A stretch of 47,464 nt of DNA from a virus (Duplodnaviria > Caudoviricetes). The notes under the pieces were generated by a model. It worked only from the letters and a program-made list of their open reading frames with translations, was not told the origin of the DNA and did no database searches. The translations under genes and the position numbers were made by a program. Shown in pieces: positions 8,868-35,004 of the stretch. The stretch's first letter is position 1. Every line of letters starts with the position of its first letter. Location: the IMG/VR virus record IMGVR_UViG_3300049919_000106, positions 1-47,464 of that record; one strand, 5' to 3'.

Positions 8868-10013
8868 ATGGACAACAATAACCCAGTATTAGGAGAGATT
8901 GAGAAACGATTACTAGAAGGATCTAGTGCTATCTCATCAGAGACAGGTGCTCTTGAGAAGACTATTAGTGACTCTATCTCTTCTGTTAAGCAGGGCCAGG
9001 CAGCTACTGAGTCACGCATTACTTCTGATTTCAAGTCAGAACGTAATTACCTAACAAACCAAGGAGAAGCTTCAGCTACTACAGCACTAGAAGGAAGACA
9101 AGGTTTTGGTACACAACTCGCAGCTATGCGTATGCTTACTGAGACTACTGATAAGACTCTACGAGATCTTGATGTACGAAAACAAGATGCACTTCTAGCT
9201 AATGATTCTGCTGCTGCACAACGTATCTCTGATCTTCAACTTAAGGAGTATGAGTACAGACAGAAGGCAAAGCAGGATATGTTTAATAACCTCATCTCTG
9301 TTGGTAACTACTCACTCAATAAATCTACATTTGAAGCTGGTCGTGAAGAAGAGGCCAAGAGATTTGGTCTTGCTAAGCGTGCCCAGAAATTTACAGAGAC
9401 ACAAGGAGAAAGAACAATGTCACTTGCTGAACGAGCACAAGACTTTGGTGAATCAGAAGCAATGGCTAATATTGCTCTTGAATACGGAGTAACTCTACAA
9501 GAAGGAGACACACTAGATACCGTAGCTGCTAAGGCTGCGCCATTTGCTAGTGAGAAACAAAAGCTAAGCCTTGAACAAATCCGAGCAGAGATTAGTGCTG
9601 CTAAGGCTACTACAGCTCGTGCGATGCAACAGATTAAGATGGATGACCAAGAGTTCAGTGATGCTGAAAGATTATCTATCGCTGCTGGTGTACGTAAAGG
9701 AACTATAGACATCACTAAGATGCCTGTACTTGAACAAGCAAAGATACATGAAGTTGGTAAGCAACTATCTGAGGAAGCTTTTGGTAAGTTACTTGGTGTT
9801 GCGAAGGCAAGTAAGTTTGATAGTATGGAAGAACTACAAGCTGAAGCTACAAGACAAGGACTTGACTTTACACAGTCAGAACTAGCAGATGCCTTCTTCT
9901 CTGAGGGTGCTGATGTACCTGCACGACCTGGAATACTACAACGAGGTAGACAGAATGATATTAACAGAGCTTTAAAGGAAGCAGAGAAGGCTGGTAAAAC
10001 AGTAATGTCATAA
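8868..10013 (+). CDS. putative ejection (internal virion) protein
   Basis: 381 aa Ala/Gln/Glu-rich helical protein upstream of a very large ORF. Confidence 0.55.
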   Translation: MDNNNPVLGEIEKRLLEGSSAISSETGALEKTISDSISSVKQGQAATESRITSDFKSERNYLTNQGEASATTALEGRQGFGTQLAAMRMLTETTDKTLRDLDVRKQDALLANDSAAAQRISDLQLKEYEYRQKAKQDMFNNLISVGNYSLNKSTFEAGREEEAKRFGLAKRAQKFTETQGERTMSLAERAQDFGESEAMANIALEYGVTLQEGDTLDTVAAKAAPFASEKQKLSLEQIRAEISAAKATTARAMQQIKMDDQEFSDAERLSIAAGVRKGTIDITKMPVLEQAKIHEVGKQLSEEAFGKLLGVAKASKFDSMEELQAEATRQGLDFTQSELADAFFSEGADVPARPGILQRGRQNDINRALKEAEKAGKTVMS

Positions 10014-14164: not shown

Positions 14165-14419
14165 TTAGACCTTGATTAGCTTTCTTTTAGTGATGCAAAC
14201 TTTTGGTATACTCATGTATGCCCCACAGTTTCCATTACTAATATCTTTTGCCATAGTCAGAGTGATTGATTGTTTGTCTTCATGGACAAGGTATCCAATT
14301 GTTTCTATCTCTGCTAGTTTATTCTCATCCTCAATCAGCTTACTGGCACGAACCCATCCGTCTGCTCCAGTTGCATCTATCCATCTAATGAATATGATCT
14401 GTGGCCCTTTAACTGCCAT
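14165..14419 (-). CDS. conserved phage hypothetical protein
   Basis: WIDA...GW...IETIGYLV...IPKVCI pattern; overlaps the groES stop. Confidence 0.7.
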   Translation of the reverse strand: MAVKGPQIIFIRWIDATGADGWVRASKLIEDENKLAEIETIGYLVHEDKQSITLTMAKDISNGNCGAYMSIPKVCITKRKLIKV

Positions 14420-14741
14420 ATTTTGAGAGGATATTCTCTTCCTTAATAAAGATAAAGTCTACTTCAAATACATTGATATTCATTGCTGAATACTTCTCAA
14501 AGAGAACAAACTCTCCTGGCTCTACACTATGAACATCTGGCCCCATGGAGACAACCATAGCATACTCTGGTTTGTCTTCATAGTTCTTAGGGTCATAAGT
14601 GACTCCGTCTGTGTCGAAATCGACTGGAACCAATAGTACATTATCCCTGAGTACTTGGTGCTTCGTCAGCTCCCTTAAGTTCTTGTTCTTTAGCAGAGCT
14701 ATCTTCTGATTGAACCCCTCCTTCATTGTTGTCTCCTGCAT
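14409..14741 (-). CDS. groES: co-chaperonin GroES
   Basis: LRDNVLL...AMVVSMGPDV...VEPGEFVLFEKYS...FIKEENIL; start may be the downstream Met at 14726. Confidence 0.85.
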   Translation of the reverse strand: MQETTMKEGFNQKIALLKNKNLRELTKHQVLRDNVLLVPVDFDTDGVTYDPKNYEDKPEYAMVVSMGPDVHSVEPGEFVLFEKYSAMNINVFEVDFIFIKEENILSKYGS

Positions 14742-14907
14742 TTTCTGTAGGCTTAAGTTCGATTAAACGTGCATCTGGGATGATTCCATTACGACCTGTT
14801 CGTAGGAATGGTTCAATGGCTAGACCATCTCGTTCAAGAATATCTTGAATTTCTTTAGCTGCGTTCTCTAGTTTACTACTTGCTTGTACTTGTGGTTTGT
14901 TTGTCAT
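14641..14907 (-). CDS. hypothetical protein between groEL and groES
   Basis: 88 aa; overlaps both neighbours. Confidence 0.55.
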   Translation of the reverse strand: MTNKPQVQASSKLENAAKEIQDILERDGLAIEPFLRTGRNGIIPDARLIELKPTENAGDNNEGGVQSEDSSAKEQELKGADEAPSTQG

Positions 14908-16420
14908 CTTCTTTTGTATTAACGATTATGTATCGGCTAGTAAGGATTGCGATAGCGATTGAGATTGAGTTCTCAATGGCCATCTGAGTTACTTTGTAGG
15001 GGTCAATGACTCCGGCTTTGATGAGGTCTTCTTCTTTGTCCGTTTTGGCGTTGTAGCCGTAGCTTCCTTTACTGACGGACAAGAGGTAATCTCCACTCTT
15101 ACCACAGTTTTCTGCAATCTGGCGAACACTCGCTTGACCAAACTTTTTAAATATTGCATCTTTTTCTTTATTAGTCGCTTGTAATAATGCTAGTCCTCCT
15201 CCTGGTAGATACCCGTACTTCATTGCTGCTCTTGTAGCATTGATGGCATCTTCATAGCGGAAGATCTTTTCTTGAGTTTCAATAGGTGTCTTTCCTGCAA
15301 CCTTTACTGTGACAGTACCAGTGGTCAGCACAGCTAGTCTACGAGAAATCTTTTCATTATCCTTATCCTTATCCTTCTCTGCCTGTAACTCTTCAACTAG
15401 GGCCATGAGTTTAGGATTTGCGTTATTGTGTGTAGCTAGAACAGTCTTGTCTGCTGTTGCATATACTTTCTTTGCTACTATGAAGTCTTCGGTTGTTAGT
15501 CCATTGACGAGTTTGCCTTGCTTCTCTGTTACTAGATTCCCACCTAGATAGATTGCGAGGTCATTGAGTACTGATGAATCATTCTCTTTTGCTTCTGGAT
15601 GTTTAACTAGAAGGAGATTGATGTACCCTTGGGTATGATTTCCTATCAAGAAGTTTGGAGCCTTACCAATGAAATCTCGTGCAATGATTACTAGATTCTT
15701 AATGTTAGCTTTGATTGCGGTAGATAGAATAGCTTTACATTCTTCTTCGTAGTATAATCGCTTGTCGGTTACAAGGACATGCACATCCTCATAGCCAGCT
15801 TTCATTGATCCATCATTTGCTAGTTCTGGTACTAGCATACCACTATTGATTACATATCCAGTGTCCTGAATAAGCTCTGTCTCATCTGATGTTGAAGGGT
15901 TTATGAAAACCATTCCTGAATCCCCAGCGGTCTTCACCACTTCAAGGACATTCATTGCTATCTCATCATCTCCTCCAGAAGATATAGTTGCAATGTTTAG
16001 AATATCTTGATCTGTACTAACCTTGATTGGATTGAGTGAGGCCACTGTTCTCCGACCAAAGGCTTCCAGGTTCTTCTTAAGCTGCATGACGTTCATACCA
16101 TCATCTAGCAGTTTCATCCCTTCACGGATTAGAGTAGAAGTTAGGAGAATGGTTGTACTTGTACCATCACCTGCTACTCTATTTGTATTTAATGCCCCAT
16201 ACTTGATTACTCTGATTATAGAATCCTCAATGGCATCCTCAGATGAGATCTGCTTAGCAATAGTTACGCCGTCATTAGTTACATAGATACCACCTTGGGA
16301 ATCTTCATAGAGAGTATTACCCCCTTGCGGACTGATGGTCTGGACAACAGGATCACTAATCTTCTTTACTGCGTTTAGTACTTTTTCCCTTACCTCTAAT
16401 GTGTTTACTATTAGTTTCAT
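14876..16420 (-). CDS. groEL: chaperonin GroEL
   Basis: TISPQG, TNDGVTIAK, AGDGTSTT, EDAINATRAA, LPGGG, GVIDPYKV motifs. Confidence 0.95.
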   Translation of the reverse strand: MKLIVNTLEVREKVLNAVKKISDPVVQTISPQGGNTLYEDSQGGIYVTNDGVTIAKQISSEDAIEDSIIRVIKYGALNTNRVAGDGTSTTILLTSTLIREGMKLLDDGMNVMQLKKNLEAFGRRTVASLNPIKVSTDQDILNIATISSGGDDEIAMNVLEVVKTAGDSGMVFINPSTSDETELIQDTGYVINSGMLVPELANDGSMKAGYEDVHVLVTDKRLYYEEECKAILSTAIKANIKNLVIIARDFIGKAPNFLIGNHTQGYINLLLVKHPEAKENDSSVLNDLAIYLGGNLVTEKQGKLVNGLTTEDFIVAKKVYATADKTVLATHNNANPKLMALVEELQAEKDKDKDNEKISRRLAVLTTGTVTVKVAGKTPIETQEKIFRYEDAINATRAAMKYGYLPGGGLALLQATNKEKDAIFKKFGQASVRQIAENCGKSGDYLLSVSKGSYGYNAKTDKEEDLIKAGVIDPYKVTQMAIENSISIAIAILTSRYIIVNTKEDDKQTTSTSK

Positions 16421-18419: not shown

Positions 18420-18495
18420 ATACGTGATTGCCATTATATGGCGGCATTGCACCCCATGAGCTTACGAAGCCTTACATGGTATCTCAAAGAGAATA

Positions 18496-18568
18496 ATTCG
18501 GGCAGCAGAGTCGAACTACTTTCTTTAGTATCTATTGTACCAAGATCTTGCCGTTAGACCAGCCCAAA
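18496..18568 (-). ncRNA. tRNA-like element with abnormal anticodon arm
   Basis: Acceptor TTTGGGC/GCCCGAA, D-arm GTCT-AACGGCA-AGAT, T-arm AGTAG-TTCGACT-CTGCT; anticodon arm TTGGTA-CAATAGA-TACTAA lacks U33. Confidence 0.65.
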
Positions 18569-18592
18569 TTACCTTTACTTTATTGACAGCTG

Positions 18593-18826: not shown

Positions 18827-18828
18827 AT

Positions 18829-18985
18829 GTTAGAGTCTTTGTTAGATACAATCCTGGCCTCGGTATCAAGCAGACAAGATCCCGATATTCATAACTTAAG
18901 GGCATTGGATTGCCAGCTCCGTATTGGTTCTGCTTACCGTTACGGACAATGGGCTGCCATCTCCTGTTTACTAACCGACTCTAAC
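18829..18985 (-). ncRNA. ~157-nt multi-stem structured RNA of unknown class
   Basis: Ends pair (GTTAGAGTC/GACTCTAAC, GTTAG/CTAAC); 5' end coincides with predicted TSS and 3' end abuts tRNA-Trp. Confidence 0.65.
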
Positions 18986-18991
18986 TCTACT

Positions 18992-19020
18992 AGTATAGCA
19001 TACTTTGTAATACAATGCAA
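18992..19020 (-). promoter_or_regulatory. sigma70-type promoter of the ncRNA/tRNA operon
   Basis: TTGCAT-17nt-(TGc)TATACT. Confidence 0.75.
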
Positions 19021-19021
19021 G

Positions 19022-19144
19022 CTATTTCTTCAATAGACCACGTTTTTGCATTAATGGCAAGAGTACCTTACGAAGATACATACCAGATACATTCATCTTC
19101 GATTGATTCCATTTTATAAATTCTCTCTTCTCTGATTTTAACAT
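19022..19144 (-). CDS. small basic hypothetical protein (40 aa)
   Basis: MLKSEKREFIKWNQSKMNVSGMYLRKVLLPLMQKRGLLKK; fills the gap between tRNA-like element and promoter. Confidence 0.45.
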   Translation of the reverse strand: MLKSEKREFIKWNQSKMNVSGMYLRKVLLPLMQKRGLLKK

Positions 19145-19145
19145 A

Positions 19146-19214
19146 AGGGATATTAAGGACTCGAACCTTACCTTCCTAGTAACTAGGCTTGCTAACCGCT
19201 AACACTACTATCCC
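19146..19214 (-). ncRNA. tRNA-like element with truncated anticodon arm
   Basis: GGGATA/TATCCC acceptor, D-loop AGCGGTT, T-arm TAAGG-TTCGAGT-CCTTA; anticodon arm only CCTAG-TTA-CTAGG. Confidence 0.65.
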
Positions 19215-19230
19215 GTAGATAGCTTGGCCA

Positions 19231-19245
19231 TGAAATGAATCAGAG
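19231..19245 (-). repeat. 15-nt direct repeat CTCTGATTCATTTCA, copy 1 (hairpin loop)
   Basis: Identical to 21297-21311; sits in the loop of an 11-bp ATGGTTTGGCC/GGCCAAGCTAT stem. Confidence 0.8.
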
Positions 19246-19260
19246 GGCCAAACCATATTA

Positions 19261-19428
19261 TTACTTCTTCTTCTCATTTTCCTCCTTCTTTGGAAGAACA
19301 CATCCCCTTCCTGTCCAGCAAGGGGTAGGCATTTTAACATGCTGCCCGTTACTGGGTCGGTGGAACTCGGTGACTGCGTGTGTTGCCACACAGCGGCCAC
19401 ACCTTGTACAATTAATGATCTTTCTCAT
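19261..19428 (-). CDS. small Cys-rich (Zn-finger-like) protein, GC-rich cassette gene 5
   Basis: MRKIINCTRCGRC...CWTGRGC; SD GGGAG 6 nt before ATG at 19428. Confidence 0.7.
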   Translation of the reverse strand: MRKIINCTRCGRCVATHAVTEFHRPSNGQHVKMPTPCWTGRGCVLPKKEENEKKK

Positions 19429-19441
19429 GCTGATCTCCCAA

Positions 19442-19750
19442 TCAAACGCATGTATCTTGCCGACACCACATGGCGAGCAAGTCATCTCGCTCGTCTACCA
19501 TGAAGACAAACTGCATCTTCAAGTTGGCGTCAAAAAGAATGAGCCACAGGCGGTCATTCTTCTCATCGTAGGTGGCAATGCACTCGACATTCCGCCAGCC
19601 CAGCTGAGGGACGTTGCATTGCTGATCAATGACGATCTGGTAGCTCATCACTTCGACCAGCAGACCTTGCGGCGGCTTGTCCATCTCCCCTACCGCAAAG
19701 GCAGAAAAGATAACGCCGAAGACAAACAACACAAACGCTTTCATCATCAC
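19442..19750 (-). CDS. secreted/membrane-anchored small protein, GC-rich cassette gene 4
   Basis: Signal-peptide-like MMMKAFVLFVFGVIFSAFA; SD AGGAG. Confidence 0.75.
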   Translation of the reverse strand: MMMKAFVLFVFGVIFSAFAVGEMDKPPQGLLVEVMSYQIVIDQQCNVPQLGWRNVECIATYDEKNDRLWLILFDANLKMQFVFMVDERDDLLAMWCRQDTCV

Positions 19751-19757
19751 AGTTCTC

Positions 19758-19949
19758 CTACGTCATTTCTGACTCAAGATGTATCAAGTAACTCCGCACA
19801 TAAGGTGGAATGGTCTGTTGAGTGCGAAAGGCAAGGACATCGCCACTCACATCAACATCTCGACCAAAAGACCAAACATGCGCCATACGGAAGAAGTGCC
19901 TGTCACTCACTCCCAACCGTTGTATTGCTGCACACAGACCGAGCAACAT
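19758..19949 (-). CDS. hypothetical protein, GC-rich cassette gene 3
   Basis: 63 aa; SD GGAGG 6 nt before ATG. Confidence 0.7.
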   Translation of the reverse strand: MLLGLCAAIQRLGVSDRHFFRMAHVWSFGRDVDVSGDVLAFRTQQTIPPYVRSYLIHLESEMT

Positions 19950-20094
19950 CTGGTTCCTCCGTAATTGGTGGCAGTACCTTCAAAGGCTCATAACCCTTGA
20001 GGCATGGGGTATGAACATGAAGCTGGTCTTCCAGCCGTATCAAGTTGGCTGGTTCCCAGAGTTCAATCTGTTTCCAGCAATGGCCGCATTTCAT
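19903..20094 (-). CDS. small Zn-finger-like protein, GC-rich cassette gene 2
   Basis: MKCGHC...HVHTPC; SD AGGAG 6 nt before ATG. Confidence 0.7.
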   Translation of the reverse strand: MKCGHCWKQIELWEPANLIRLEDQLHVHTPCLKGYEPLKVLPPITEEPDVARSVCSNTTVGSE

Positions 20095-20103
20095 GGTGTT
20101 CTC

Positions 20104-20322
20104 CTATAGGTTGTGACTGATTAAAAACGATTCTTCAGTGTGTTCTGGGTAAAGCGGTGCTTTCGCTTGCACCGTTTCACACTTCTTTGAGCAGCTCCCT
20201 GCTTCAGAGTGTGCGCCGTACCAGCCGCCCGTAACAGGCTTTTGGCAAACGCAACACAGGCCAACCACCTTCTCTTTGTAGTCATCTTGTACCTCTCGTA
20301 GGTTTTGGACTTTGCGTGACAT
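20104..20322 (-). CDS. small Zn-finger-like protein, GC-rich cassette gene 1
   Basis: CCVCQK...CSKKC; SD AAGGA 5 nt before ATG. Confidence 0.7.
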   Translation of the reverse strand: MSRKVQNLREVQDDYKEKVVGLCCVCQKPVTGGWYGAHSEAGSCSKKCETVQAKAPLYPEHTEESFLISHNL

Positions 20323-20334
20323 CTCAATCCTTGG

Positions 20335-20395
20335 TTGTTAAGAACATGGCGAGGGTATCTACCGCAGTAAATTTATGGGCGAACCCGACCCTCTC
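20335..20395 (-). promoter_or_regulatory. structured 5' leader (three-way junction) plus boxA-like motif
   Basis: GAGGGT/ACCCTC enclosing GGG-TTCG-CCC and TTTAC-TGCG-GTAGA; then TGTTCTTAACAA. Confidence 0.55.
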
Positions 20396-20402
20396 AAGTA
20401 AG

Positions 20403-20431
20403 ATCATATCACAAAGTACAAATAAATGCAA
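20403..20431 (-). promoter_or_regulatory. sigma70-type promoter of the GC-rich cassette
   Basis: TTGCAT-17nt-(TGa)TATGAT. Confidence 0.75.
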
Positions 20432-20475
20432 GTGGAAAACTCATTCAAATACATAAGTCTATTAATGTCAAGTAT

Positions 20476-20498
20476 AGAAAAACCACCCGAAGGTGGCT
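20476..20498 (-). terminator. intrinsic terminator
   Basis: GCCACC-TTCG-GGTGGT followed by TTTTCT on the minus strand. Confidence 0.85.
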
Positions 20499-20504
20499 AG
20501 TCTC

Positions 20505-20633
20505 TTAAACATCTTTAAATTCGTACCCATGCTGAGTAGCAAATAGATGTTCTGCATATTTAATATTCTCTATTTTGAACGGACTACCATTTCTTAGAAT
20601 AGTTGAACCTATCCTATCTTGGAACCATTCCAT
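20505..20633 (-). CDS. small hypothetical protein (42 aa)
   Basis: MEWFQDRIGSTILRNGSPFKIENIKYAEHLFATQHGYEFKDV; ends just before the terminator. Confidence 0.55.
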   Translation of the reverse strand: MEWFQDRIGSTILRNGSPFKIENIKYAEHLFATQHGYEFKDV

Positions 20634-20637
20634 CTCT

Positions 20638-20733
20638 TTAGCCCTCACACGAGAGACAAACACCATCTGGTGGGCCTCCTCCTGATCGACCAGTATCTTC
20701 TGTTGTCTCTTCTGGTTTTGTTTCTTCTGGCAT
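20638..20733 (-). CDS. 31-aa acidic peptide with C-terminal CxxC (VCLSCEG)
   Basis: MPEETKPEETTEDTGRSGGGPPDGVCLSCEG; tightly packed between neighbours. Confidence 0.6.
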   Translation of the reverse strand: MPEETKPEETTEDTGRSGGGPPDGVCLSCEG

Positions 20734-20738
20734 AATTA

Positions 20739-21149
20739 TTATTTATTCCAGCACCGAGCACTTGATTTCCAAGGCTGAGTACCTTGTGTTGCTAGTAGAT
20801 GTTTAGCATACTTCCAGTTACCTTCGGGTGTATAGATGTCTAATCCTAATTTCTTTGATGAGTTAAGATGATACTTAGTATTGATTTGGCACATGCCAAT
20901 ATCTTCTCCATAGATTGCTGGGGTATGTTTTCCCTTTAATGGGGTTACTCCATCCAGCTCATAATGGTTTACTGTACCTTTTCCATCTCCACTTTCACAT
21001 GAACATATTGCCAAGAGTAGATCATTGTCTAGCTTTGGCATCGGTGACACTACCTCCTCAATAACTTTCTCACTGGCTTCGATAACGGTTGCAGTTTCTG
21101 GAACCACACCTAATTCTTCGCCCTGTGCTGATAGCTGTGCTAGAGCCAT
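20739..21149 (-). CDS. lysozyme-like / lytic transglycosylase protein (true start likely upstream, ~21209)
   Basis: ICSCESG...DIGMCQIN...GNWKYAKHL...GTQPWKSSARCW; in-frame upstream signal peptide KKKLVAVTLIAALSIPL. Confidence 0.8.
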   Translation of the reverse strand: MALAQLSAQGEELGVVPETATVIEASEKVIEEVVSPMPKLDNDLLLAICSCESGDGKGTVNHYELDGVTPLKGKHTPAIYGEDIGMCQINTKYHLNSSKKLGLDIYTPEGNWKYAKHLLATQGTQPWKSSARCWNK

Positions 21150-21296
21150 CAGTGGTATAGATAGTGCAGCAATTAAGGTTACTGCGACTAGTTTCTTTTT
21201 ACTTAAAATAAGTTGTATTAGTTACCAATAGTGCCGATACCGCTACCATTACTGAGGCTGTCCACTCCTGGGGTTTACCTAATGTAAACTGTATTC

Positions 21297-21311
21297 TGAA
21301 ATGAATCAGAG
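21297..21311 (-). repeat. 15-nt direct repeat CTCTGATTCATTTCA, copy 2 (5' end of transcript)
   Basis: Identical to 19231-19245; forms TCTGA-TTCATT-TCAGA hairpin at the predicted TSS. Confidence 0.8.
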
Positions 21312-22418: not shown

Positions 22419-22887
22419 GTATCTTATCTTTAAATGCTGATAATACTTCTTCTGATTCGACCTCATGTACCTTACTTAGATTACCTGTCTCATTGCACTT
22501 TTTCATGACAAGGTAAGAGTAGGTGCGTTCTCCTTTTTCTTCTGTAACTAGATCATAGTAACGATCTCGGAAATCCTTAATAGATAGTGTCTTGGCGGCG
22601 TAAAGTATCTCTTCGTCAACCTCTCCCATCTTAAGGATTAATTTAGCATTTGCTTTTGGCATTCCCATGTAATCTATCACAAAGAATGTTTCTGCTATAC
22701 CTAGTAGGAAGTTTGCTTCTGTAGTAGACAGAGCAATCTCTGGTTGTGCGATAAAGTCATGCCAAGTATTAATACCTTCTCCAACTAGATCACGGTAGGA
22801 TGATTTAGCTTCAAGTAATAATCTACCTAGAGCTATTTCATTCTCCCTGTAATTTCTAATCGTTAGAACTAAGTCTTTAAAAGTCAT
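22411..22887 (-). CDS. hypothetical protein
   Basis: 158 aa ORF coupled to neighbours. Confidence 0.7.
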   Translation of the reverse strand: MTFKDLVLTIRNYRENEIALGRLLLEAKSSYRDLVGEGINTWHDFIAQPEIALSTTEANFLLGIAETFFVIDYMGMPKANAKLILKMGEVDEEILYAAKTLSIKDFRDRYYDLVTEEKGERTYSYLVMKKCNETGNLSKVHEVESEEVLSAFKDKIHD

Positions 22888-23278
22888 CTGTAGGATCTGG
22901 GATTACTTCTGCTGGTAAGAGTGATTTAAGTTGAGATTCTACTGTAGCTAGTCTAGCATAGATATCTGCAACTACAGCATCATTACTCTGGCTTGTATGG
23001 GCAGGTGTGGGTGCTGATTCATCTCGTACTACTTTGAAGTTAAGATACTTACCTTCCTTCTGAGTAATAGCAATGTTTACCTTGTCACCCTTCTTCCAGC
23101 TTTCTGTACCGTTGTTAGTAAGAGCAACCATACCATTAAACCAACGATCATTTACTGGGATCTCTGTACCATTGATATCAAATACCTTAGACTCCACGAT
23201 CTTAAGTCCGATCCGTTGTTTCATCCCGTACTGTGTCTCTTTCTCCTCTCGATTAATACCGTCAATAGTTACCTGCAT
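22877..23278 (-). CDS. putative ssDNA-binding (OB-fold-like) protein
   Basis: Beta-rich N-terminus (WKKGDKVNIAITQKEGKYLNFK) and acidic-Phe C-terminal tail (PDPTDDF). Confidence 0.5.
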   Translation of the reverse strand: MQVTIDGINREEKETQYGMKQRIGLKIVESKVFDINGTEIPVNDRWFNGMVALTNNGTESWKKGDKVNIAITQKEGKYLNFKVVRDESAPTPAHTSQSNDAVVADIYARLATVESQLKSLLPAEVIPDPTDDF

Positions 23279-28914: not shown

Positions 28915-29265
28915 TTATAAAGATAAATTACTAAGTGGTAAATTCTCGGTACTTCTCTGACCGTCTGACTTGGGTGCGTGTTTAGCTATTCTTTCATCCC
29001 TGTTTGGATGATATCTACGTGCTGTAGCTTGTGGTGGAATGGAATCTTGTGGTCGAGATCCAGTAGTTCTTATTAAATCAGGGATATTTTCTAGTATACG
29101 CCTGTGTTCTCTTTCTAACTCTAACCTACGAAACTCCATGTTGTGCATTTCAATCATGTCTGTAAAATCTCTTCCTGACATTGCTGTAGGTGGTTGTAGC
29201 CAAAAATCATGATCATCTTGCTCCTCATCCCATTCTACTACATCTCGATCATCTAGTGGTGGCAT
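28915..29265 (-). CDS. hypothetical protein, acidic N-terminus
   Basis: 116 aa; overlaps ATP-grasp gene end. Confidence 0.55.
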   Translation of the reverse strand: MPPLDDRDVVEWDEEQDDHDFWLQPPTAMSGRDFTDMIEMHNMEFRRLELEREHRRILENIPDLIRTTGSRPQDSIPPQATARRYHPNRDERIAKHAPKSDGQRSTENLPLSNLSL

Positions 29266-30016
29266 ATGCTAAAAACTTATTTACGTAGGCTTGTAAGGTT
29301 CTTGTTTCCATAGATGGTGCAGTGTTTACTTCACAAACAAATACATCACCATTCTCATCCTTGATTATATCTACTGCCCCGAAGTCTAGGCCAAGTGATG
29401 TCATTGCATGAATGGCTAGATCCTCAATGCGTTCAAGTCGGCGTAGGTTATCCTGTCTAAAGATCCAACCATTATCATGGGTGCGTACTAGGCCTTGATC
29501 TCTGGTAGGTTCATCCTCTCTAGCTCGTGATCGCTTGCGGTAGTCAATAACTTCACCCTGGAATACATGCACACGGTACTCACCATGATTATCAATTCCC
29601 TTGGTAAAGAGCTTTGCATCATGGGGTAGTACCTCATCAGCAGTATAGATCTGTATTCCTTCACCAGAATGTCCTGTGAGACTAAATCTGGCATAGACAT
29701 TTCCATTCCAGCCATCTTCATCCCAATCTGAGGCTTCATCCCAGGATGTTGTAAAGGTTAGACAGGGGACACCATGATCTCGAAGAGTTGTTAGTGTCTT
29801 TAGTTTGTTAGAAGCTAGTCCAACATTTACAGGCATGTTTAGGATATGTGCATCTTGACATATCCAGTTTGGCATGGTGCTATTTCCCCAGTTTACTACG
29901 ATGTGCCTTGGTCTGTATCTATACCTTCCATTGGGTCGTACCCTTTTGGCATCTAGGGCTGTGGCAAGTAACTTACCACTAGCTGATCCCATCTTGTACG
30001 GATAAACTTTGAACAT
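29249..30016 (-). CDS. ATP-grasp ligase (phiEco32-type)
   Basis: VNWGN, ASNKLKT, GHSGEGI, EYRVHV, LGLDFGAVD, VCEVNTAPS. Confidence 0.9.
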   Translation of the reverse strand: MFKVYPYKMGSASGKLLATALDAKRVRPNGRYRYRPRHIVVNWGNSTMPNWICQDAHILNMPVNVGLASNKLKTLTTLRDHGVPCLTFTTSWDEASDWDEDGWNGNVYARFSLTGHSGEGIQIYTADEVLPHDAKLFTKGIDNHGEYRVHVFQGEVIDYRKRSRAREDEPTRDQGLVRTHDNGWIFRQDNLRRLERIEDLAIHAMTSLGLDFGAVDIIKDENGDVFVCEVNTAPSMETRTLQAYVNKFLAYATTR

Positions 30017-30243
30017 TATAGTTTGATCTTATCGAGTAATTCTTTATACTTATTCGTGGGGTTTGTATAGATATAACGATTAAAGGATTGTTCTGACAAT
30101 GCTTCTCGTATTGTTTGAATTTCGGAACGAGTAAGATCTCTAATGTTGTATTTTGCTTCGAGCACAATACGTTCGACATGGTTATTTACTACTTCTGGTA
30201 CTGGATCTTTTGTTTTGAATAGTGACATATAACTTAACCCCAA
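30016..30243 (-). CDS. hypothetical protein
   Basis: 75 aa ORF (likely ATG start at 30228), TAATG-coupled to ATP-grasp gene. Confidence 0.6.
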   Translation of the reverse strand: MGLSYMSLFKTKDPVPEVVNNHVERIVLEAKYNIRDLTRSEIQTIREALSEQSFNRYIYTNPTNKYKELLDKIKL

Positions 30244-30389
30244 CTAGCCATTAAATAATAATTATGCGAATTAACACATTCATCACACCAAATTACTTTT
30301 CTATCGTAATAACCTAAAGCACCATTCTCTTTAACAGACCGTTCACTTACATTCTTTTTTTCTTTTTTACAGCAGTTACAGGTTTGCAT
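30234..30389 (-). CDS. small Zn-ribbon protein (51 aa)
   Basis: MQTCNCC...WCDEC... Confidence 0.55.
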   Translation of the reverse strand: MQTCNCCKKEKKNVSERSVKENGALGYYDRKVIWCDECVNSHNYYLMASWG

Positions 30390-30641
30390 TTACTTTGTTT
30401 TCTTAACCTTCTTTACTTTCCGATAACCTTTTTGCATCTCTTGAAAGTACTCTACTCCTAGAAAACCAGTAAGTAGGGCAAGTTTTTTGTTAAGCTCAGT
30501 TATTTGATCTCGCAGCGATTGATCTTGACGATCTGTATTAGATTTCTGTCTATTGATCTGAGCCTGTAGTCCAGAGTAGTTTGACTTGATATCTACTAGT
30601 GATTGTTCTAATGATTTTATCTTTTTTGTATTGAAAATAAT
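30390..30641 (-). CDS. coiled-coil hypothetical protein with probable ATT/ATC start
   Basis: 84-codon open frame IIFNTKKIKSLEQSLVDIK...GYRKVKKVKKTK whose stop abuts the next ATG; no early ATG/GTG/TTG. Confidence 0.5.
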   Translation of the reverse strand: MIFNTKKIKSLEQSLVDIKSNYSGLQAQINRQKSNTDRQDQSLRDQITELNKKLALLTGFLGVEYFQEMQKGYRKVKKVKKTK

Positions 30642-30738
30642 TTCGATTTTAAGCTCTTATAATTAACCCACATGATACATACCTCACCTTTGCTATTTAA
30701 ACCTCGCTATGAGGCGTATACGCACGATTAGAGTGTGT

Positions 30739-31533
30739 CTACGGGGTAGTTCGTATCTGCATTTCATTGATCTTTTGGTCTACTACTCTTTTTACCTCTT
30801 TTTCATCATCAGGATCTATACCCATTTCATTGCGCCAGTACACCAGGATCTCATCAACCATGGTAGGTAGCCAGTGTAGAGGGAAAGCCTTATCAACCAA
30901 TCGCTTGTAACCAAACTCATCCGACCCAGTAGTACCTTTCCAGTAGAAGTATTGCATTACTACCAGCGCAAGTTGGTATTCCGTAACAGAGGCAAGCGTT
31001 GGCTTAAGTTGTTTTCCTAACAGAGCATAGTTAGTAGAAACAGGATAGCGGCCATATCTTTCTTTCCACACAGAGGAATAGAAATTAATAACACGCTGTA
31101 GAGAAGAATTACCTTTGATGGGTAGTTGGTTTTTAGGTAACTCAACTATATCTTTAGATATAGTATTACTTGTATTATTATTACTTGTATTATTATGTGA
31201 GAAGGTTTCTTTTACCTCCCCCAACGATTTCTTTTTTGGAGGGGTATAGTCAATTTTGACCTGGGGTGTAATTTTACGTGGCTCAGATCCATCACGAGAA
31301 CCAACTTTAATTAGATCTAATTCCTCCAAATCTGTTATTGATTTACTGATTGTAGGCTGACTTTTCTTAAATACTACCTCAAAATAATTGTTATTGGCGT
31401 GGCAGTAACCATTCTTATTTGACAATGCCATTATTTCACTGTATAGTAATTTTGCAAAGTCTGATAAATCCTCATGGTATCGTATGTATGCTGGTGTTAC
31501 CGACCAGAAGTTTGGTTTTTCTTTGTCATTCAT
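30739..31533 (-). CDS. replication initiator (N-terminal HTH, lambda O-like organisation)
   Basis: PAYIRY...LSDFAKLLYSEIMALSNKNGYCHANNNYF...TISKSITDL; NNTSNNNTS linker. Confidence 0.8.
   Translation of the reverse strand: MNDKEKPNFWSVTPAYIRYHEDLSDFAKLLYSEIMALSNKNGYCHANNNYFEVVFKKSQPTISKSITDLEELDLIKVGSRDGSEPRKITPQVKIDYTPPKKKSLGEVKETFSHNNTSNNNTSNTISKDIVELPKNQLPIKGNSSLQRVINFYSSVWKERYGRYPVSTNYALLGKQLKPTLASVTEYQLALVVMQYFYWKGTTGSDEFGYKRLVDKAFPLHWLPTMVDEILVYWRNEMGIDPDDEKEVKRVVDQKINEMQIRTTP
31146..31195. repeat. candidate replication origin: palindrome plus tandem 15-nt repeat
   Basis: CTATATCT-tt-AGATATAG then TATTACTTGTATTAT x2, within the initiator linker. Confidence 0.5.
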
Positions 31534-31539
31534 ATCTGT

Positions 31540-31568
31540 ATCATATCACGTAATGTATAACATTGCAA
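31540..31568 (-). promoter_or_regulatory. sigma70-type promoter, leaderless initiator mRNA
   Basis: TTGCAA-17nt-(TGa)TATGAT; ATG 7 nt downstream. Confidence 0.75.
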
Positions 31569-31593
31569 CTTCACAACAACTGATAAGTGTGTC

Positions 31594-32694
31594 CTAGTCT
31601 GTAAACATCCTATCAGCCCCATAAAAGTACGCTTCGTCAAGTCTATTGGTTAATAATTTAATGCGCTGATCTGTCTCAATAATCTTACGTCTAATTTGTG
31701 AACGTGATCCAAGATCAGTTTCAAGTGCTAGATCTGCACTAAACTCTGCTTTGTCAAGATGTAGTGTCTCAATCTCAATTTCAATGTTCTGGATCTCGGC
31801 CTCTACTTCATGCTGAGCCATGGAGTATAGCTCTCTTTCCTTGCTATGCTTTGCTGGCTCAGGAAGCTCGTAATTTGCTCCATAACCCATATAAGGCTTC
31901 GAGGCCACGATAAAACTTCCTATTTCGATCTTATAACAAATCTCTGTCTTTGTCTTATAGTCTCGGACATACAATGTCTCTGACGGAAGCAGATTTCCTT
32001 TACCTTCACTCTTAAGGGCAAACACTGTAGGCTTTTTTCTCTTCATTTTTTTACCAGATGGTTGCTCCCATACTAAAGGTCTTCCTTCATTATGTCCATA
32101 AAAGACACTCTCAATCTCGTTCGTGTCCTTTATAACTTGTAGCCCAATAATAGCCGCACCCCCGATAGTATCTATTGTTTGCTTTTTCCCCTCAAGGAAT
32201 AACGCAAGCTCCACAGCAATGGATTCTGAGTCATTATGTTTACCCTGTGTAAACTCATGCTTATCGTGTTGGTTCTGATCTGGAAAGTGTACACCACTTA
32301 CTGTCATATACCTTGATTTATACTTGATACCCATGTCTTCATGCTCTTTTTGCATAACATTGGTATTAGTAATCACACCATTATGAACTACATAATAGTC
32401 ATAGGCAAACGACTCATGGCTGATCTTAAATGGATGAGCCGTACCAGCATAGTTAGGTGTAGATGTAGGAATACGATGATGGAATAAAATAGCATCAAAG
32501 TCACCTGCAACTAGTAATTGTGTACGGATCTCATCCTCCTCCTCTGCTCGGTGAAAGGCTGAAATGACACCATCTTTGATAGCGACAAATCCAAACCCCT
32601 CAGTACCTCTATGTTTCTGCTCCACAAACCGATTCAGTAGCTCCTGGCGTGTGTTGGCATTGTTTCTCCCCTCCACATATATAATTCCACACAT
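31594..32694 (-). CDS. class II (Ntn) glutamine amidotransferase
   Basis: MCGI, HRGTEGFG, HHRIPTS, AHPF, HNGVITN, DSE. Confidence 0.9.
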   Translation of the reverse strand: MCGIIYVEGRNNANTRQELLNRFVEQKHRGTEGFGFVAIKDGVISAFHRAEEEDEIRTQLLVAGDFDAILFHHRIPTSTPNYAGTAHPFKISHESFAYDYYVVHNGVITNTNVMQKEHEDMGIKYKSRYMTVSGVHFPDQNQHDKHEFTQGKHNDSESIAVELALFLEGKKQTIDTIGGAAIIGLQVIKDTNEIESVFYGHNEGRPLVWEQPSGKKMKRKKPTVFALKSEGKGNLLPSETLYVRDYKTKTEICYKIEIGSFIVASKPYMGYGANYELPEPAKHSKERELYSMAQHEVEAEIQNIEIEIETLHLDKAEFSADLALETDLGSRSQIRRKIIETDQRIKLLTNRLDEAYFYGADRMFTD

Positions 32695-32698
32695 TGGT

Positions 32699-33892
32699 TT
32701 ATAGGCTTAAATAGTTATAATGATTAATAAGTGTCTTCACGTACTTTTGCATCTCATCATCTGCCCCGATAATCTCTAGTAGGTATAATACCTTGTCTTC
32801 AAGACTTGTCAACTTGCTCCCAGGTAGGATATTTTTCTGATTAAGAGTACCATCCACGACACAATCAATGATTTGTCTATGAAATCGCATCCAGTTTATG
32901 ATTAATTTAGGCTCAATAGTGCTTTTATGGGATCTAATCTCTATAGTATTGGTTCGATTCCAAATACTATGTAGGTTTACATCCTGATAGCGGCTATTCT
33001 CATAGTGGAAACTATAATGGGCACGTAATTCCCTTGGATCTGGCTCCAAATACCACAATTGTTGAAACTCAGTAATAGTCTTGACTGCTAGGATCTCATC
33101 AATAGTGTATGTTTCGGAAACTCTCCGACAATAAGAGTTATCTACCTTTCGACTATCAGGAACCATACCACTAATTACATCATTGAATACAACATAAGTC
33201 AATAGTACATTCTTTAATCTATCTACTTCATCATTTGGTGGAATAAACATTGCATACTTACCTTTATTCTGTTCAGTAAGTTTTCTTGCAAAAAATGATC
33301 TAATCTCCTCCCTTGGAAATTTTTCTATTTTGTAGAAATCAGCTTGCGTGATTTTAAAGTAATTATGGATACCATTTACTTTATAGGTACAGATGAAATC
33401 CTCACCACAAGATCTAATTACGGAGTAATCTTCATAAATCTCACCCCTCACCCAACTAAAGAACCTCAAATAGTCTTCATTTGACAATCTATAGTCTTCT
33501 GAATGGCCTCTGTAAGATCGTATAGCTTGAAATGAGGCGTGTAAAACTACCTCCCCTGCACTTACTACCTGTAGGGCTTCATTTCTGTCTATAATCGCTA
33601 AACTAGCCTCACCAACAAATTCCTCTGCTCCTAAGTGAACATGAAATCCAGAGTTAATACCAGTAGGATCAACTTCTATATTCTTAAGATCCCTACATAG
33701 ATCAACGATGGCTTTTTCTCCACTCTTACCTCTTAACACTCTAGAGACAATTTCAATTGGATTTGCCCCAATAATAGAGCTATCCGTAGTAGTGTGAAAG
33801 TTCTCACTTACCATGTCACTCAGTTCTCCAATATCATTTTCAAGGGCATCAATCTCGATTTCAATCCCAAAAGTACGATTAGATGTTTTCAT
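32699..33892 (-). CDS. putative amidoligase (COOH-NH2 ligase, Amidoligase_2-like)
   Basis: RTFGIEIE, TDSSI, EIVS, GFHVHLG, RYQDVNL, TIEIR. Confidence 0.85.
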   Translation of the reverse strand: MKTSNRTFGIEIEIDALENDIGELSDMVSENFHTTTDSSIIGANPIEIVSRVLRGKSGEKAIVDLCRDLKNIEVDPTGINSGFHVHLGAEEFVGEASLAIIDRNEALQVVSAGEVVLHASFQAIRSYRGHSEDYRLSNEDYLRFFSWVRGEIYEDYSVIRSCGEDFICTYKVNGIHNYFKITQADFYKIEKFPREEIRSFFARKLTEQNKGKYAMFIPPNDEVDRLKNVLLTYVVFNDVISGMVPDSRKVDNSYCRRVSETYTIDEILAVKTITEFQQLWYLEPDPRELRAHYSFHYENSRYQDVNLHSIWNRTNTIEIRSHKSTIEPKLIINWMRFHRQIIDCVVDGTLNQKNILPGSKLTSLEDKVLYLLEIIGADDEMQKYVKTLINHYNYLSL

Positions 33893-34040
33893 TTCTTACA
33901 CGATTGATAATGGATAATAACCAAGACTCAGCATTTGGTCTGTCTACAAGGGGATTATAAATATCATCCTCAGTAAAATCATCCTCAACAAACGCTAAAC
34001 CAAGTGATCGTGCCTCTGCTAGAATTTCTTTGTCTGACAT
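33879..34040 (-). CDS. small acidic protein (53 aa) between the two ligases
   Basis: MSDKEILAEARSLGLAFVEDDFTEDDIYNPLVDRPNAESWLLSIINRVRNENI. Confidence 0.55.
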   Translation of the reverse strand: MSDKEILAEARSLGLAFVEDDFTEDDIYNPLVDRPNAESWLLSIINRVRNENI

Positions 34041-34044
34041 ATAA

Positions 34045-35004
34045 TTAATAATTTTCTAAGTAATCTTCAAATCCACTACCGATCCAATCACAATTGAATA
34101 CTTCATAGGGCTTTTTGCCACCAAAATCATCAACAGAATCAAGAAAAGAATCAATTGTCATTTTATCTATAGGATAATTCCATTGACCAATGTTCAAACC
34201 AACCAATACTTTTGAGTATTTATCAAAGTTCTTTCTAGCTAGTACTGGGTCGTTCTCATTAATTGCCTTGATTATATCAGCTTGATTAACACTTGACAAG
34301 ATAGTTTCTGTGTGTCCATATCCAACTACCCATAATGCTTGTCGTACTAATCCAGTAGCAAGACCAAATAATCGGTAATCTCGTAACCAGAAATTAGATA
34401 GTGTCCGATATTCTAGTCCATAATACTTTTCACGGTACTCACCTGCCCGACCATAAGTCTTGCGGCGTTCTGTAGATCCTTTATATTGATCGAACAGTAC
34501 GCAAGTATTACCAGCAATTATATCAAGTACCTTTACAATAGTATTGATATCAGTATCTTGCGCAACAACATTATGTGATTCAGTATGATTCTTGTATCCA
34601 ATGTGAATATGACCACCTGCGGATCTCTGCAATTGATCCTGTGCTCCTTCAGGAATAGGATTTACACCATAGGCATTAGATGATGGAACACAACCAAATT
34701 GCTTAGAAAATGGACTCAGGGAATCAAATTGCTCCTGTGTAAGAGTAACAGTAGTGTCAAAGACGATCTCACATTCCTTTGTCCTGGCAAATTCCTTTGC
34801 TGTGTTCATACAATCAACTACATTGCGCCAAAGATTCTCACGACACTGTGCCGCACCTGGATTAATTTCTGCCGCTACACCATCACGGATCAATTTCCCA
34901 TCCTCACAAATCCACTTTTTTGGAATAACTAATTCAGATCCCACTACTTCACCCTTTTTGTTTTTAAAGAAAAACTCAGGATCAGCCCCTAACTCAGTGT
35001 ACAT
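34045..35004 (-). CDS. phiEco32-like COOH-NH2 ligase type 2
   Basis: LGADPEFF, DGVAAEINP, FGCVP, RSAGGHIHIG, RRKTYGRAGEYR, GLEYRTLSNFW. Confidence 0.92.
   Translation of the reverse strand: MYTELGADPEFFFKNKKGEVVGSELVIPKKWICEDGKLIRDGVAAEINPGAAQCRENLWRNVVDCMNTAKEFARTKECEIVFDTTVTLTQEQFDSLSPFSKQFGCVPSSNAYGVNPIPEGAQDQLQRSAGGHIHIGYKNHTESHNVVAQDTDINTIVKVLDIIAGNTCVLFDQYKGSTERRKTYGRAGEYREKYYGLEYRTLSNFWLRDYRLFGLATGLVRQALWVVGYGHTETILSSVNQADIIKAINENDPVLARKNFDKYSKVLVGLNIGQWNYPIDKMTIDSFLDSVDDFGGKKPYEVFNCDWIGSGFEDYLENY

Follow-up and report, generated by a model that had tools for sequence, protein, structure and literature searches.

The stretch of DNA described here (the “window”, i.e., all 47,464 nt of IMG/VR record IMGVR_UViG_3300049919_000106, Caudoviricetes) is a near-complete 47.5-kb record of a freshwater phage that encodes a terminase, a portal, a primase/helicase, and a chaperonin. 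Five small open reading frames (ORFs) on its minus strand occupy positions 19261–20322, and all five have a core Shine-Dalgarno (SD) sequence 4–10 nt upstream of the start codon. We refer to these genes and the signals around them as the “cassette”. SD sequences are rare elsewhere in the genome: 5/5 cassette genes have an SD core in this position vs 4/57 other genes (Fisher p = 1.9e-5), the latter being our own list drawn from the ORFs, with one shadow ORF dropped. The energy of the duplex with the anti-SD sequence ranges from −5.2 to −9.5 kcal/mol for cassette genes; the median of the others is −0.9 kcal/mol. SD-like sites outside the cassette precede 1356, 20505–20666, 22877–23278, and 43893, and AGGAG also precedes an internal ATG at 14726. 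A first-pass annotation, made from the letters of the window alone, had described the five genes, their SD sequences at spacings of 5–7 nt, and the scarcity of SDs in other genes; all of these descriptions hold on computation.

The cassette also stands out in composition. Its GC content is 49.6% across 19261–20322, compared with 38.7 ± 2.3% (maximum 46.5%) for equal-size windows elsewhere; the first-pass annotation had correctly called the cassette GC-rich, although the background is 39% and not the 32% it gave for a single line. By summed dinucleotide distance, the cassette is outside the ten most deviant windows. GC content at third codon positions (GC3) is 0.47–0.69 in cassette genes, with a median of 0.31 elsewhere (p = 3e-4), the TpA ratio is 0.33–0.67, compared with 0.95 elsewhere (p = 4e-6), and codon use departs from that of the remaining phage genes. 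The absence of CTAG from the cassette had also been pointed out. The CTAG-free gap is real (19183–20497), and for a pre-chosen 1062 nt the absence has p = 0.017; however, with 181 sites in the window, the longest gap reaches this size in 70% of random placements (p = 0.70). The gap exists because TpA is depleted, and we dropped it as independent evidence.

Identical pieces of the cassette are present in five further sequencing runs (X2–X6), meaning that the block is truly part of the phage, with an assembly artefact ruled out. As to an integron cassette or insertion sequence, no integrase or transposase was found among 30 ORFs scanned in the window, and no long terminal repeat in its repeat listing. 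Accessory phage genes with their own promoter and terminator are known as “morons”, and one explanation for the cassette is that SD-less phages repeatedly capture such a block from SD-using donors, e.g., phages of Patescibacteria that keep the anti-SD. The genes would then be expressed in the phage’s own host, with the SDs as leftovers, and the proteins would act in or on that host, in anti-defence, exclusion, or protection against cell-wall hydrolases. The foreign GC3 and codon use, which show little amelioration, are what recent capture would produce. We consider this explanation the main rival and somewhat less likely than the reading we favor, for reasons that emerge below.

The features of the locus are collected in Table 1. 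The intrinsic terminator that insulates the cassette upstream had been placed at 20476 and is confirmed with a corrected position; a terminator-like hairpin lies at the equivalent place (9584–9611) in a second phage contig, L069, described below. The promoter had been said to be of the phage’s own type. Ten sites in the window combine an extended −10 element with a 17-nt spacer, where 2.3 are expected, and the cassette promoter is among them, although a generic promoter scan did not list it (20431–20403). The cassette thus appears to carry a promoter of the phage’s own type, a prediction at odds with simple capture from a donor.

Table 1. Features of the cassette and its immediate surroundings (positions in the window)
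Feature	Position	Strand	Description
Lysozyme-like (SLT_3) gene	20739–21149	-	Upstream of cassette; 15/35 aligned relatives match PF18896
Two small genes of phage composition	20505–20733	-	Precede cassette; G005 has homologs ahead of its SD-led gene
Intrinsic terminator upstream of cassette	20473–20498	-	7-bp stem 20498–20481 and T run; z = −3.5
Predicted sigma-70 promoter	20403–20431	-	Extended −10 (TTGCAT-17-TATGAT); close to site at 31568
Predicted three-way-junction RNA leader	20351–20393	-	P1 GAGGGU/ACCCUC; P2 UUCG loop; P3 UGCG loop
Leader tail	20328–20350	-	boxA-like TGTTCTTAACA (20346–20336) running into first SD AAGGA (20332–20328)
Gene 1	20104–20322	-	72 aa; SD AAGGA, 5 nt; CxxC...CSxxC, predicted treble-clef-type zinc finger
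Gene 2	19903–20094	-	63 aa; SD AGGAG, 6 nt; CxxC plus His/Cys
Gene 3	19758–19949	-	63 aa; SD GGAGG, 6 nt; 47-nt overlap with gene 2
Gene 4	19442–19747	-	101 aa; SD AGGAG, 7 nt; predicted exported, conserved Cys pair
Gene 5	19261–19428	-	55 aa; SD GGGAG, 6 nt; CxxCxxC plus His/Cys, basic tail
3′ hairpin	19219–19256	-	z = −3.4; holds 15-nt GATTCATTTC, repeated exactly at 21297–21311
tRNA-like cloverleaf	19147–19214	-	3-nt anticodon loop (TTA); z = 0.05

Between the promoter and gene 1 lies the predicted leader. The leader alone folds no better than shuffled sequences (z = −0.12), and support for its structure comes from conservation across copies; folding energy alone gives none. In E. coli, the boxA consensus is UGCUCUUUAACA, and the rrn leader is outlined as a 5′ hairpin followed by boxA, which is bound by NusB/S10 (PMC13753749). 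The boxA-like stretch of the cassette leader differs from that consensus by one mismatch and one gap; those of the other copies differ by two to three mismatches. No Rfam family matched at E ≤ 1 across 19146–20431, a range that includes the leader, the 3′ hairpin, and the tRNA-like element, and none matched in the stretch L263 at E ≤ 0.5.

The first-pass annotation had proposed recurrence with different cargo genes as the key test of its view, and the leader with its boxA-like/SD tail was indeed found again. Contig L069, which belongs to record IMGVR_UViG_3300020047_006471 (G004), was reached through one gene 4 relative. It carries, in order, a lysozyme-like gene, a terminator-like hairpin, a TATAAT promoter-like site, the leader, a gene for a 60-aa Cys-rich protein, a gene 4 homolog with 30% identity, and a terminator. 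The L069 leader is predicted to adopt the same fold, with P1 GAGAGU/ACUCUC (a compensatory G-C to A-U change), a short P2 with a GAAA loop, and P3 with a UACG loop. Immediately after the leader, both phages have CUCGCCA, a boxA-like stretch, and then an identical AACAACCAAGGA, which supplies the first SD. Within G004, the leader reaches a top local score of 39, compared with a maximum of 29 among 60 shuffles. The proposal of a folded leader with a boxA-like motif is therefore supported by recurrence with a compensatory pair, although not by folding energy. Like the phage in the window, G004 is SD-poor (3/30 long ORFs are at or below −4.2 kcal/mol, none is as low as −7, and the background is 17%), and the first cassette gene in L069 has a strong SD (−8.0 kcal/mol). 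Among detected genes, G004 and the window share only the lysozyme-like and secreted-protein genes. Both cassettes with a readable context reside in SD-less phages, whereas repeated capture would have these phages draw on SD-using donors.

A third copy of the leader (47 nt, with five differences) was found in runs X1, X3, and X4, on contigs of only 151–229 nt. In the 30-nt loose ends, an extended −10 element precedes this copy, and a boxA-like stretch, AGGAG, and the start codon (ATG) of another gene follow it. A separate contig in X1 and X3 contains the end of gene 4 (four differences in 44–45 nt) followed by a terminator-like hairpin. These near-identical pieces of gene 4 and leader on other contigs of the same samples, together with a nearly identical gene 4 relative (P0038, on a 1.7-kb contig), indicate that the module moves, in keeping with capture. 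A donor has nonetheless not appeared in cultured phages, plasmids, 401 genomes of the predicted host’s class, or leader searches. The first-pass annotation had held that a matching block in a proteobacterial phage or plasmid would mean simple recent transfer; cultured phages and plasmids contain no such block, with nucleotide matches of only 26–44 nt, all outside the cassette. Leader pattern scans returned 4, 30, and 98 IMG/VR loci and 13 metagenome loci, with the L069 contig as the sole true copy; these patterns were strict, having been built from two or three examples, and hence the result is no proof of rarity. A leader covariance model (R1; two sequences, P3 unpaired) added no further copy from 88 and 34 sources or from 33 genomes. 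One candidate contig (L070) was a spurious match.

A third SD-less phage, the complete record IMGVR_UViG_3300037882_001299 (G005), is more closely related, having 27 proteins in common with the window at 26–63% identity; it is SD-poor (4/50). At the matching site, it has a promoter-like site, an AAGGAG-led gene encoding a 59-aa CxxC...CSxxC protein, a terminator-like hairpin, and a cluster of seven tRNA genes. An SD-led Cys-rich gene at the syntenic site of a further SD-less phage speaks against repeated capture. For the two small genes upstream of the cassette, both alignments to G005 score above 300/300 shuffles. The 59-aa gene was rejected as a gene 1 homolog: 43/300 shuffles score equally, and only the Cys spacing and position are common to the two. 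The block of small genes, SD-led gene or genes, and tRNA genes (compared between L265, 15926–16503, in G005 and 20104–20733 in the window) adjoins the small terminase gene in G005 and the lysozyme-like gene in the window; these different neighbors indicate that the block moved as a unit. Three properties of morons that can be judged from sequence are seen across the relatives. First, the cassette and its counterpart in L069 both have their own promoter and terminator at the sequence level. Second, the composition of both is unlike that of their flanks. Third, content varies among relatives: G005 has just one SD-led gene, a different one, and no leader. The cassette is a real feature that recurs, and, judged from these sequences, the conserved unit is a predicted terminator, promoter, leader, SD-led cargo, and closing hairpin.

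The elements downstream of gene 5 are not part of this unit. A closing hairpin had been proposed and is present with a low z-score, but the GATTCATTTC hairpin is not conserved, as L069 closes with an ordinary terminator. GATTCATTTC occurs in two exact copies in the window (19231–19245 and 21297–21311, both minus strand; 0.18 expected), so that a 15-nt direct repeat brackets 19231–21311. Both copies lie within hairpins that have an identical loop and different outer stems, one of them at the predicted transcript start of the lysozyme-like gene. As a recurring module element, GATTCATTTC was rejected: 23 IMG/VR pattern matches lack a promoter, hairpin, or cassette context. It is found in 0/41 neighbor loci, and no TGA-N6-TCA site occurs in the scanned L013 or L069 stretches. 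The tRNA-like element is called by neither ARAGORN nor Rfam and lacks a canonical 7-nt anticodon loop. It folds no better than shuffled sequences. Its suggested role as a conserved part of the cassette is not supported, since in G005 ordinary tRNA genes come after the matching site. It is probably the degenerate first member of the phage tRNA cluster, outside the module. Cleavage by RNase P at this element as a conserved 3′ end is unsupported because the L069 cassette closes with a terminator. With its 3-nt loop, the element might be a decoy or a processing signal. Both of these downstream elements are local and lie outside the conserved module.

None of the five cassette proteins matched a PHROG or, above the cut-off, a Pfam family; for genes 2, 3, and 5, this covers Pfam and PHROG, and no large protein-database search was made for them. 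The CxxC...CSxxC spacing of gene 1 and its counterparts, which has no Pfam match, we take to be that of YacG/TRASH-type treble-clef zinc fingers. A word-based protein search returned a single relative of gene 1 (P0037; 81% identical), and in the ESM Atlas gene 1 has a feature score of 0.93 to unnamed, DUF2256-named, and zf-FCS clusters, which is a lead only. Gene 4 belongs to a family of 36 representatives at E ≤ 0.001 (gene 4 included), in which P26, C44, C56, and W94 are invariant. An A-x-A-like site or signal-peptide-like start is found in 31/35 members, which argues for an exported rather than a cytoplasmic protein. The predicted isoelectric point of mature gene 4 protein is 4.3 (family median 5.4, range 4.3–8.4). 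Family members beyond the two cassettes with a readable context are mostly on contigs of 0.5–6.5 kb, with a few on contigs of 10–37 kb. No Pfam family is consistently matched, ESM Atlas scores are only ≤0.80, the word-based search found gene 4 itself alone, and the family is present in 0/401 genomes of the host class and in no cultured phage or plasmid. The structure model of gene 4 is confident (predicted local distance difference test score, 88). Three fold searches ranked Ugi, Ugi-2, and SAUGI, inhibitors of uracil-DNA glycosylase, at the top for this model, although weakly (E 0.03–0.3; Z 5.2–5.9, where the tool advises caution below 8). Unlike these cytoplasmic DNA mimics, the gene 4 product begins with a signal-peptide-like segment and contains Cys pairs, and to call it an “inhibitor” is a guess from the model.

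The conservation of the leader exceeds that of the cargo, and the cassette adjoins a tRNA cluster and other non-coding elements. It is therefore worth asking if the RNA itself works in the host, as a structured sponge that captures NusB/S10, ribosomes, or a defence sensor, with the SDs and ORFs secondary. The invariant residues, signal-like start, and confident fold of the gene 4 family, together with the 81% relative of gene 1, instead mean that the ORFs are real coding sequences, and we regard a purely RNA-based function as very unlikely.

A lysozyme-like gene lies upstream of the cassette in the window and directly upstream of it in L069, and it is this gene that points to a host. Its relatives in GTDB genomes are in Patescibacteria at 44/48 loci, and the remaining matches are weak (E ≥ 1e-4). 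Of the four best matches, three were placed, all in one family of 33 genomes, and one (L216) was not. From the lysozyme-like gene and the SD-less style of the phage, we infer a Patescibacterial host. In the predicted host family, CCTCC is present in 0/18 readable 16S rRNA 3′ ends, and in 400 kb of the genome G001 an SD core precedes 8/347 long ORFs, compared with a coding background of 5.8%. The proposal of a Patescibacterial host without an anti-SD is thereby supported, although indirectly. NusB is found in 32/33 genomes of the family, and Rho above the cut-off in 0/33. The leader is absent from the host-group chromosomes searched (0/33 genomes, and none in the 400 kb), and no rrn-like boxA of this type occurs in the rRNA leader of G001; the cassette leader tail is closer to E. 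coli boxA than is any stretch found there. Searches of viral sequences with the lysozyme-like gene yielded nothing new. Two side observations concern these genes. The lysozyme-like frame is open upstream of its ATG (21150–21225, minus strand) and signal-peptide-like there, suggesting a non-ATG start; and in each of the 32 genomes with NusB, the match (130 aa) sits inside an open frame of ~300 aa, which hints at a fused NusB in the G001 family.

The wider class is mixed with respect to the anti-SD. At least 58 of the 177 genomes with a 16S anchor keep the anti-SD GATCACCTCC, and the variant GAATCACCTCC escaped this count; for Parcubacteria, a figure of only 48% with an anti-SD is given in PMC9297842. 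An SD-reading Patescibacterial host or donor therefore exists, in about a third of the class, in line with repeated capture. The same mixture would suit a phage with two replication hosts, one SD-independent and one SD-using, with the cassette needed only in the second. Another phage, Xhp1, is described as infecting TM7x to a limited extent in addition to its actinobacterial host (PMC13578794). However, SDs are no commoner than background among the structural and replication genes. This suggests that these genes were not selected for high expression by SD-using ribosomes, and a second replication host seems to us unlikely.

We favor, tentatively and with a probability of about 0.42, the reading that the cassette is a recurring self-contained operon of SD-less phages whose signals are kept for an SD-using cell, which would most simply be the basibiont, i.e., the bacterium on which the host lives. 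The anatomy is observed: a promoter-like site and a leader with its boxA-like/SD tail come before small SD-led genes and a closing hairpin, and this arrangement recurs with changed cargo. An SD is of no use to a ribosome that lacks the anti-SD. Since the ribosomes of the predicted host would be unable to pair with these SDs, their retention points to a ribosome that can. The first SD lies within the conserved leader tail in all three copies, the leader is kept with a compensatory P1 pair despite an identity of only 30% in the shared cargo protein, and the two readable contexts both belong to SD-less phages.

The favored reading also extends to a mechanism. Read-through by boxA matters chiefly against Rho, which the predicted host family seems to lack, and an E. 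coli-type boxA would count most where Rho exists. This relevance to Rho would favor phage DNA, rather than finished mRNA, as what would reach the partner cell, where it would be transcribed from the sigma-70 promoter. The leader would protect or antiterminate the transcript, the zinc-finger products may bind or inhibit cytoplasmic targets in the partner, and the gene 4 product, exported and disulfide-bonded, may block or inhibit a target in the partner’s periplasm. The partner would thereby stay usable, and phage yield would depend on it. Such a cross-cell purpose is a plausible proposal; it draws on two full contexts, one fragmentary copy, and the predicted host. A more specific form, which we hold as a possibility with less conviction, is a trans-host operon, in which leader, boxA, and SD-led effectors are delivered to and translated in the host’s host, where the phage does not replicate.

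Several observations weigh against an operon meant for another cell. The presence of NusB in the predicted host family means that boxA could work in the host; this also favors capture for use in the host and an RNA-based role there. An SD does not stop translation by SD-independent ribosomes. The second cassette gene in L069 has a weak SD (−4.2 kcal/mol) and an overlapping stop-start, the leader is absent from G005 despite its SD-led gene, and genome context is readable for only two cassettes. TpA depletion also marks the G001 chromosome (median 0.59). G001 has three long genes with a strong SD in 400 kb (L320, minus strand, 4008; L321, plus strand, 13149; L326, minus strand, 5898), a count not above background, and their GC3 of 0.40–0.48, compared with a median of 0.25, is import-like. 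Both traits of G001 also favor repeated capture. The SD-reading members of the class could serve as host or donor. Lastly, the host assignment rests on one gene, and no related terminase or prophage relative was found in 401 genomes of the order.

The cassette resembles several known systems in part. Like phage morons, it combines promoter, genes, and terminator in a self-contained block of foreign composition and variable content, encodes small unknown or exported proteins, and has no integrase among the ORFs scanned. Unlike morons, it has a conserved structured leader that heads changing cargo, and its translation signals misfit the rest of the genome and the predicted host 16S rRNA. The likeness to rrn-type antitermination leaders, as these are outlined in PMC13753749, is a 5′ structure followed directly by a boxA-like stretch near UGCUCUUUAACA; the differences are that the cassette leader heads protein-coding genes, is a predicted three-way junction, and matches the consensus imperfectly, and any binding of NusB/S10 is putative. 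An SD-poor genome with few strong-SD genes is also described for Bacteroidota and for phages that encode bS21 (PMC9723584). No bS21 gene was noticed in the window, whose small ORFs were scanned only in part. In Bacteroidota, the anti-SD reportedly exists and is masked; the predicted host family differs in having no anti-SD in the 16S gene (0/18).

The precedent that comes closest is Xhp1. This prophage of Schaalia odontolytica binds TM7x and infects it weakly (PMC13578794). As proposed for the cassette-bearing phage, one phage contacts both partners of a Patescibacteria-host pair. The direction is opposite, with a phage of the host acting on the epibiont, and the abstract mentions no cassette with partner-type expression signals. 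A literature search, which did not extend to most subscription journals or supplements, found no description of a cassette of this kind.

Other elements near the cassette and in the related phages deserve mention. A 160-nt non-coding stretch just before tRNA-Trp (18828–18985, minus strand) has a long terminal stem (z = −2.1) and a promoter-like site at 19020; it has no Rfam match and could be 6S-like or another small RNA. At 18495–18569 (minus strand), ARAGORN predicts a tRNA-Tyr whose anticodon, ATA, is unusual; this tRNA has no Rfam score. Within the tRNA cluster, a 40-aa ORF (19022–19144, minus strand) has a close homolog in G005 (L265, 14082–14270, minus strand), in a longer frame that overlaps tRNA-Gln. 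Also in G005, a non-coding stretch after the lysozyme-like gene (L013, 5380–5590, plus strand) has a long purine/pyrimidine stem and no Rfam match; a 15-nt purine-rich word that it has in common with the end of cassette gene 5 is probably a coincidence. Further away in the window are a GroEL-like chaperonin gene (14409–16420, minus strand), with the AGGAG before the internal ATG at 14726 in a small gene upstream of it, and a cluster of ATP-grasp (RimK-like), amidoligase, and COOH-NH2 ligase genes (29249–35004, minus strand).

The trans-cell reading bears on how Patescibacterial parasites exploit their hosts. If that reading is true, a phage would express genes in a cell where it does not replicate, which implies that nucleic acids pass between Patescibacteria, or the phages of Patescibacteria, and the bacteria that carry them. 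Every gene aimed across the cell boundary would then be recognizable by its SD. This would also provide a cheap screen: SD-led genes in lineages without an anti-SD would flag exported cargo, and their codon use may indicate the basibiont. If the cassette is instead a moron captured for use in the phage’s own host, what would remain is a structured leader RNA and a family of secreted proteins, both of them new and both from little-known phages.

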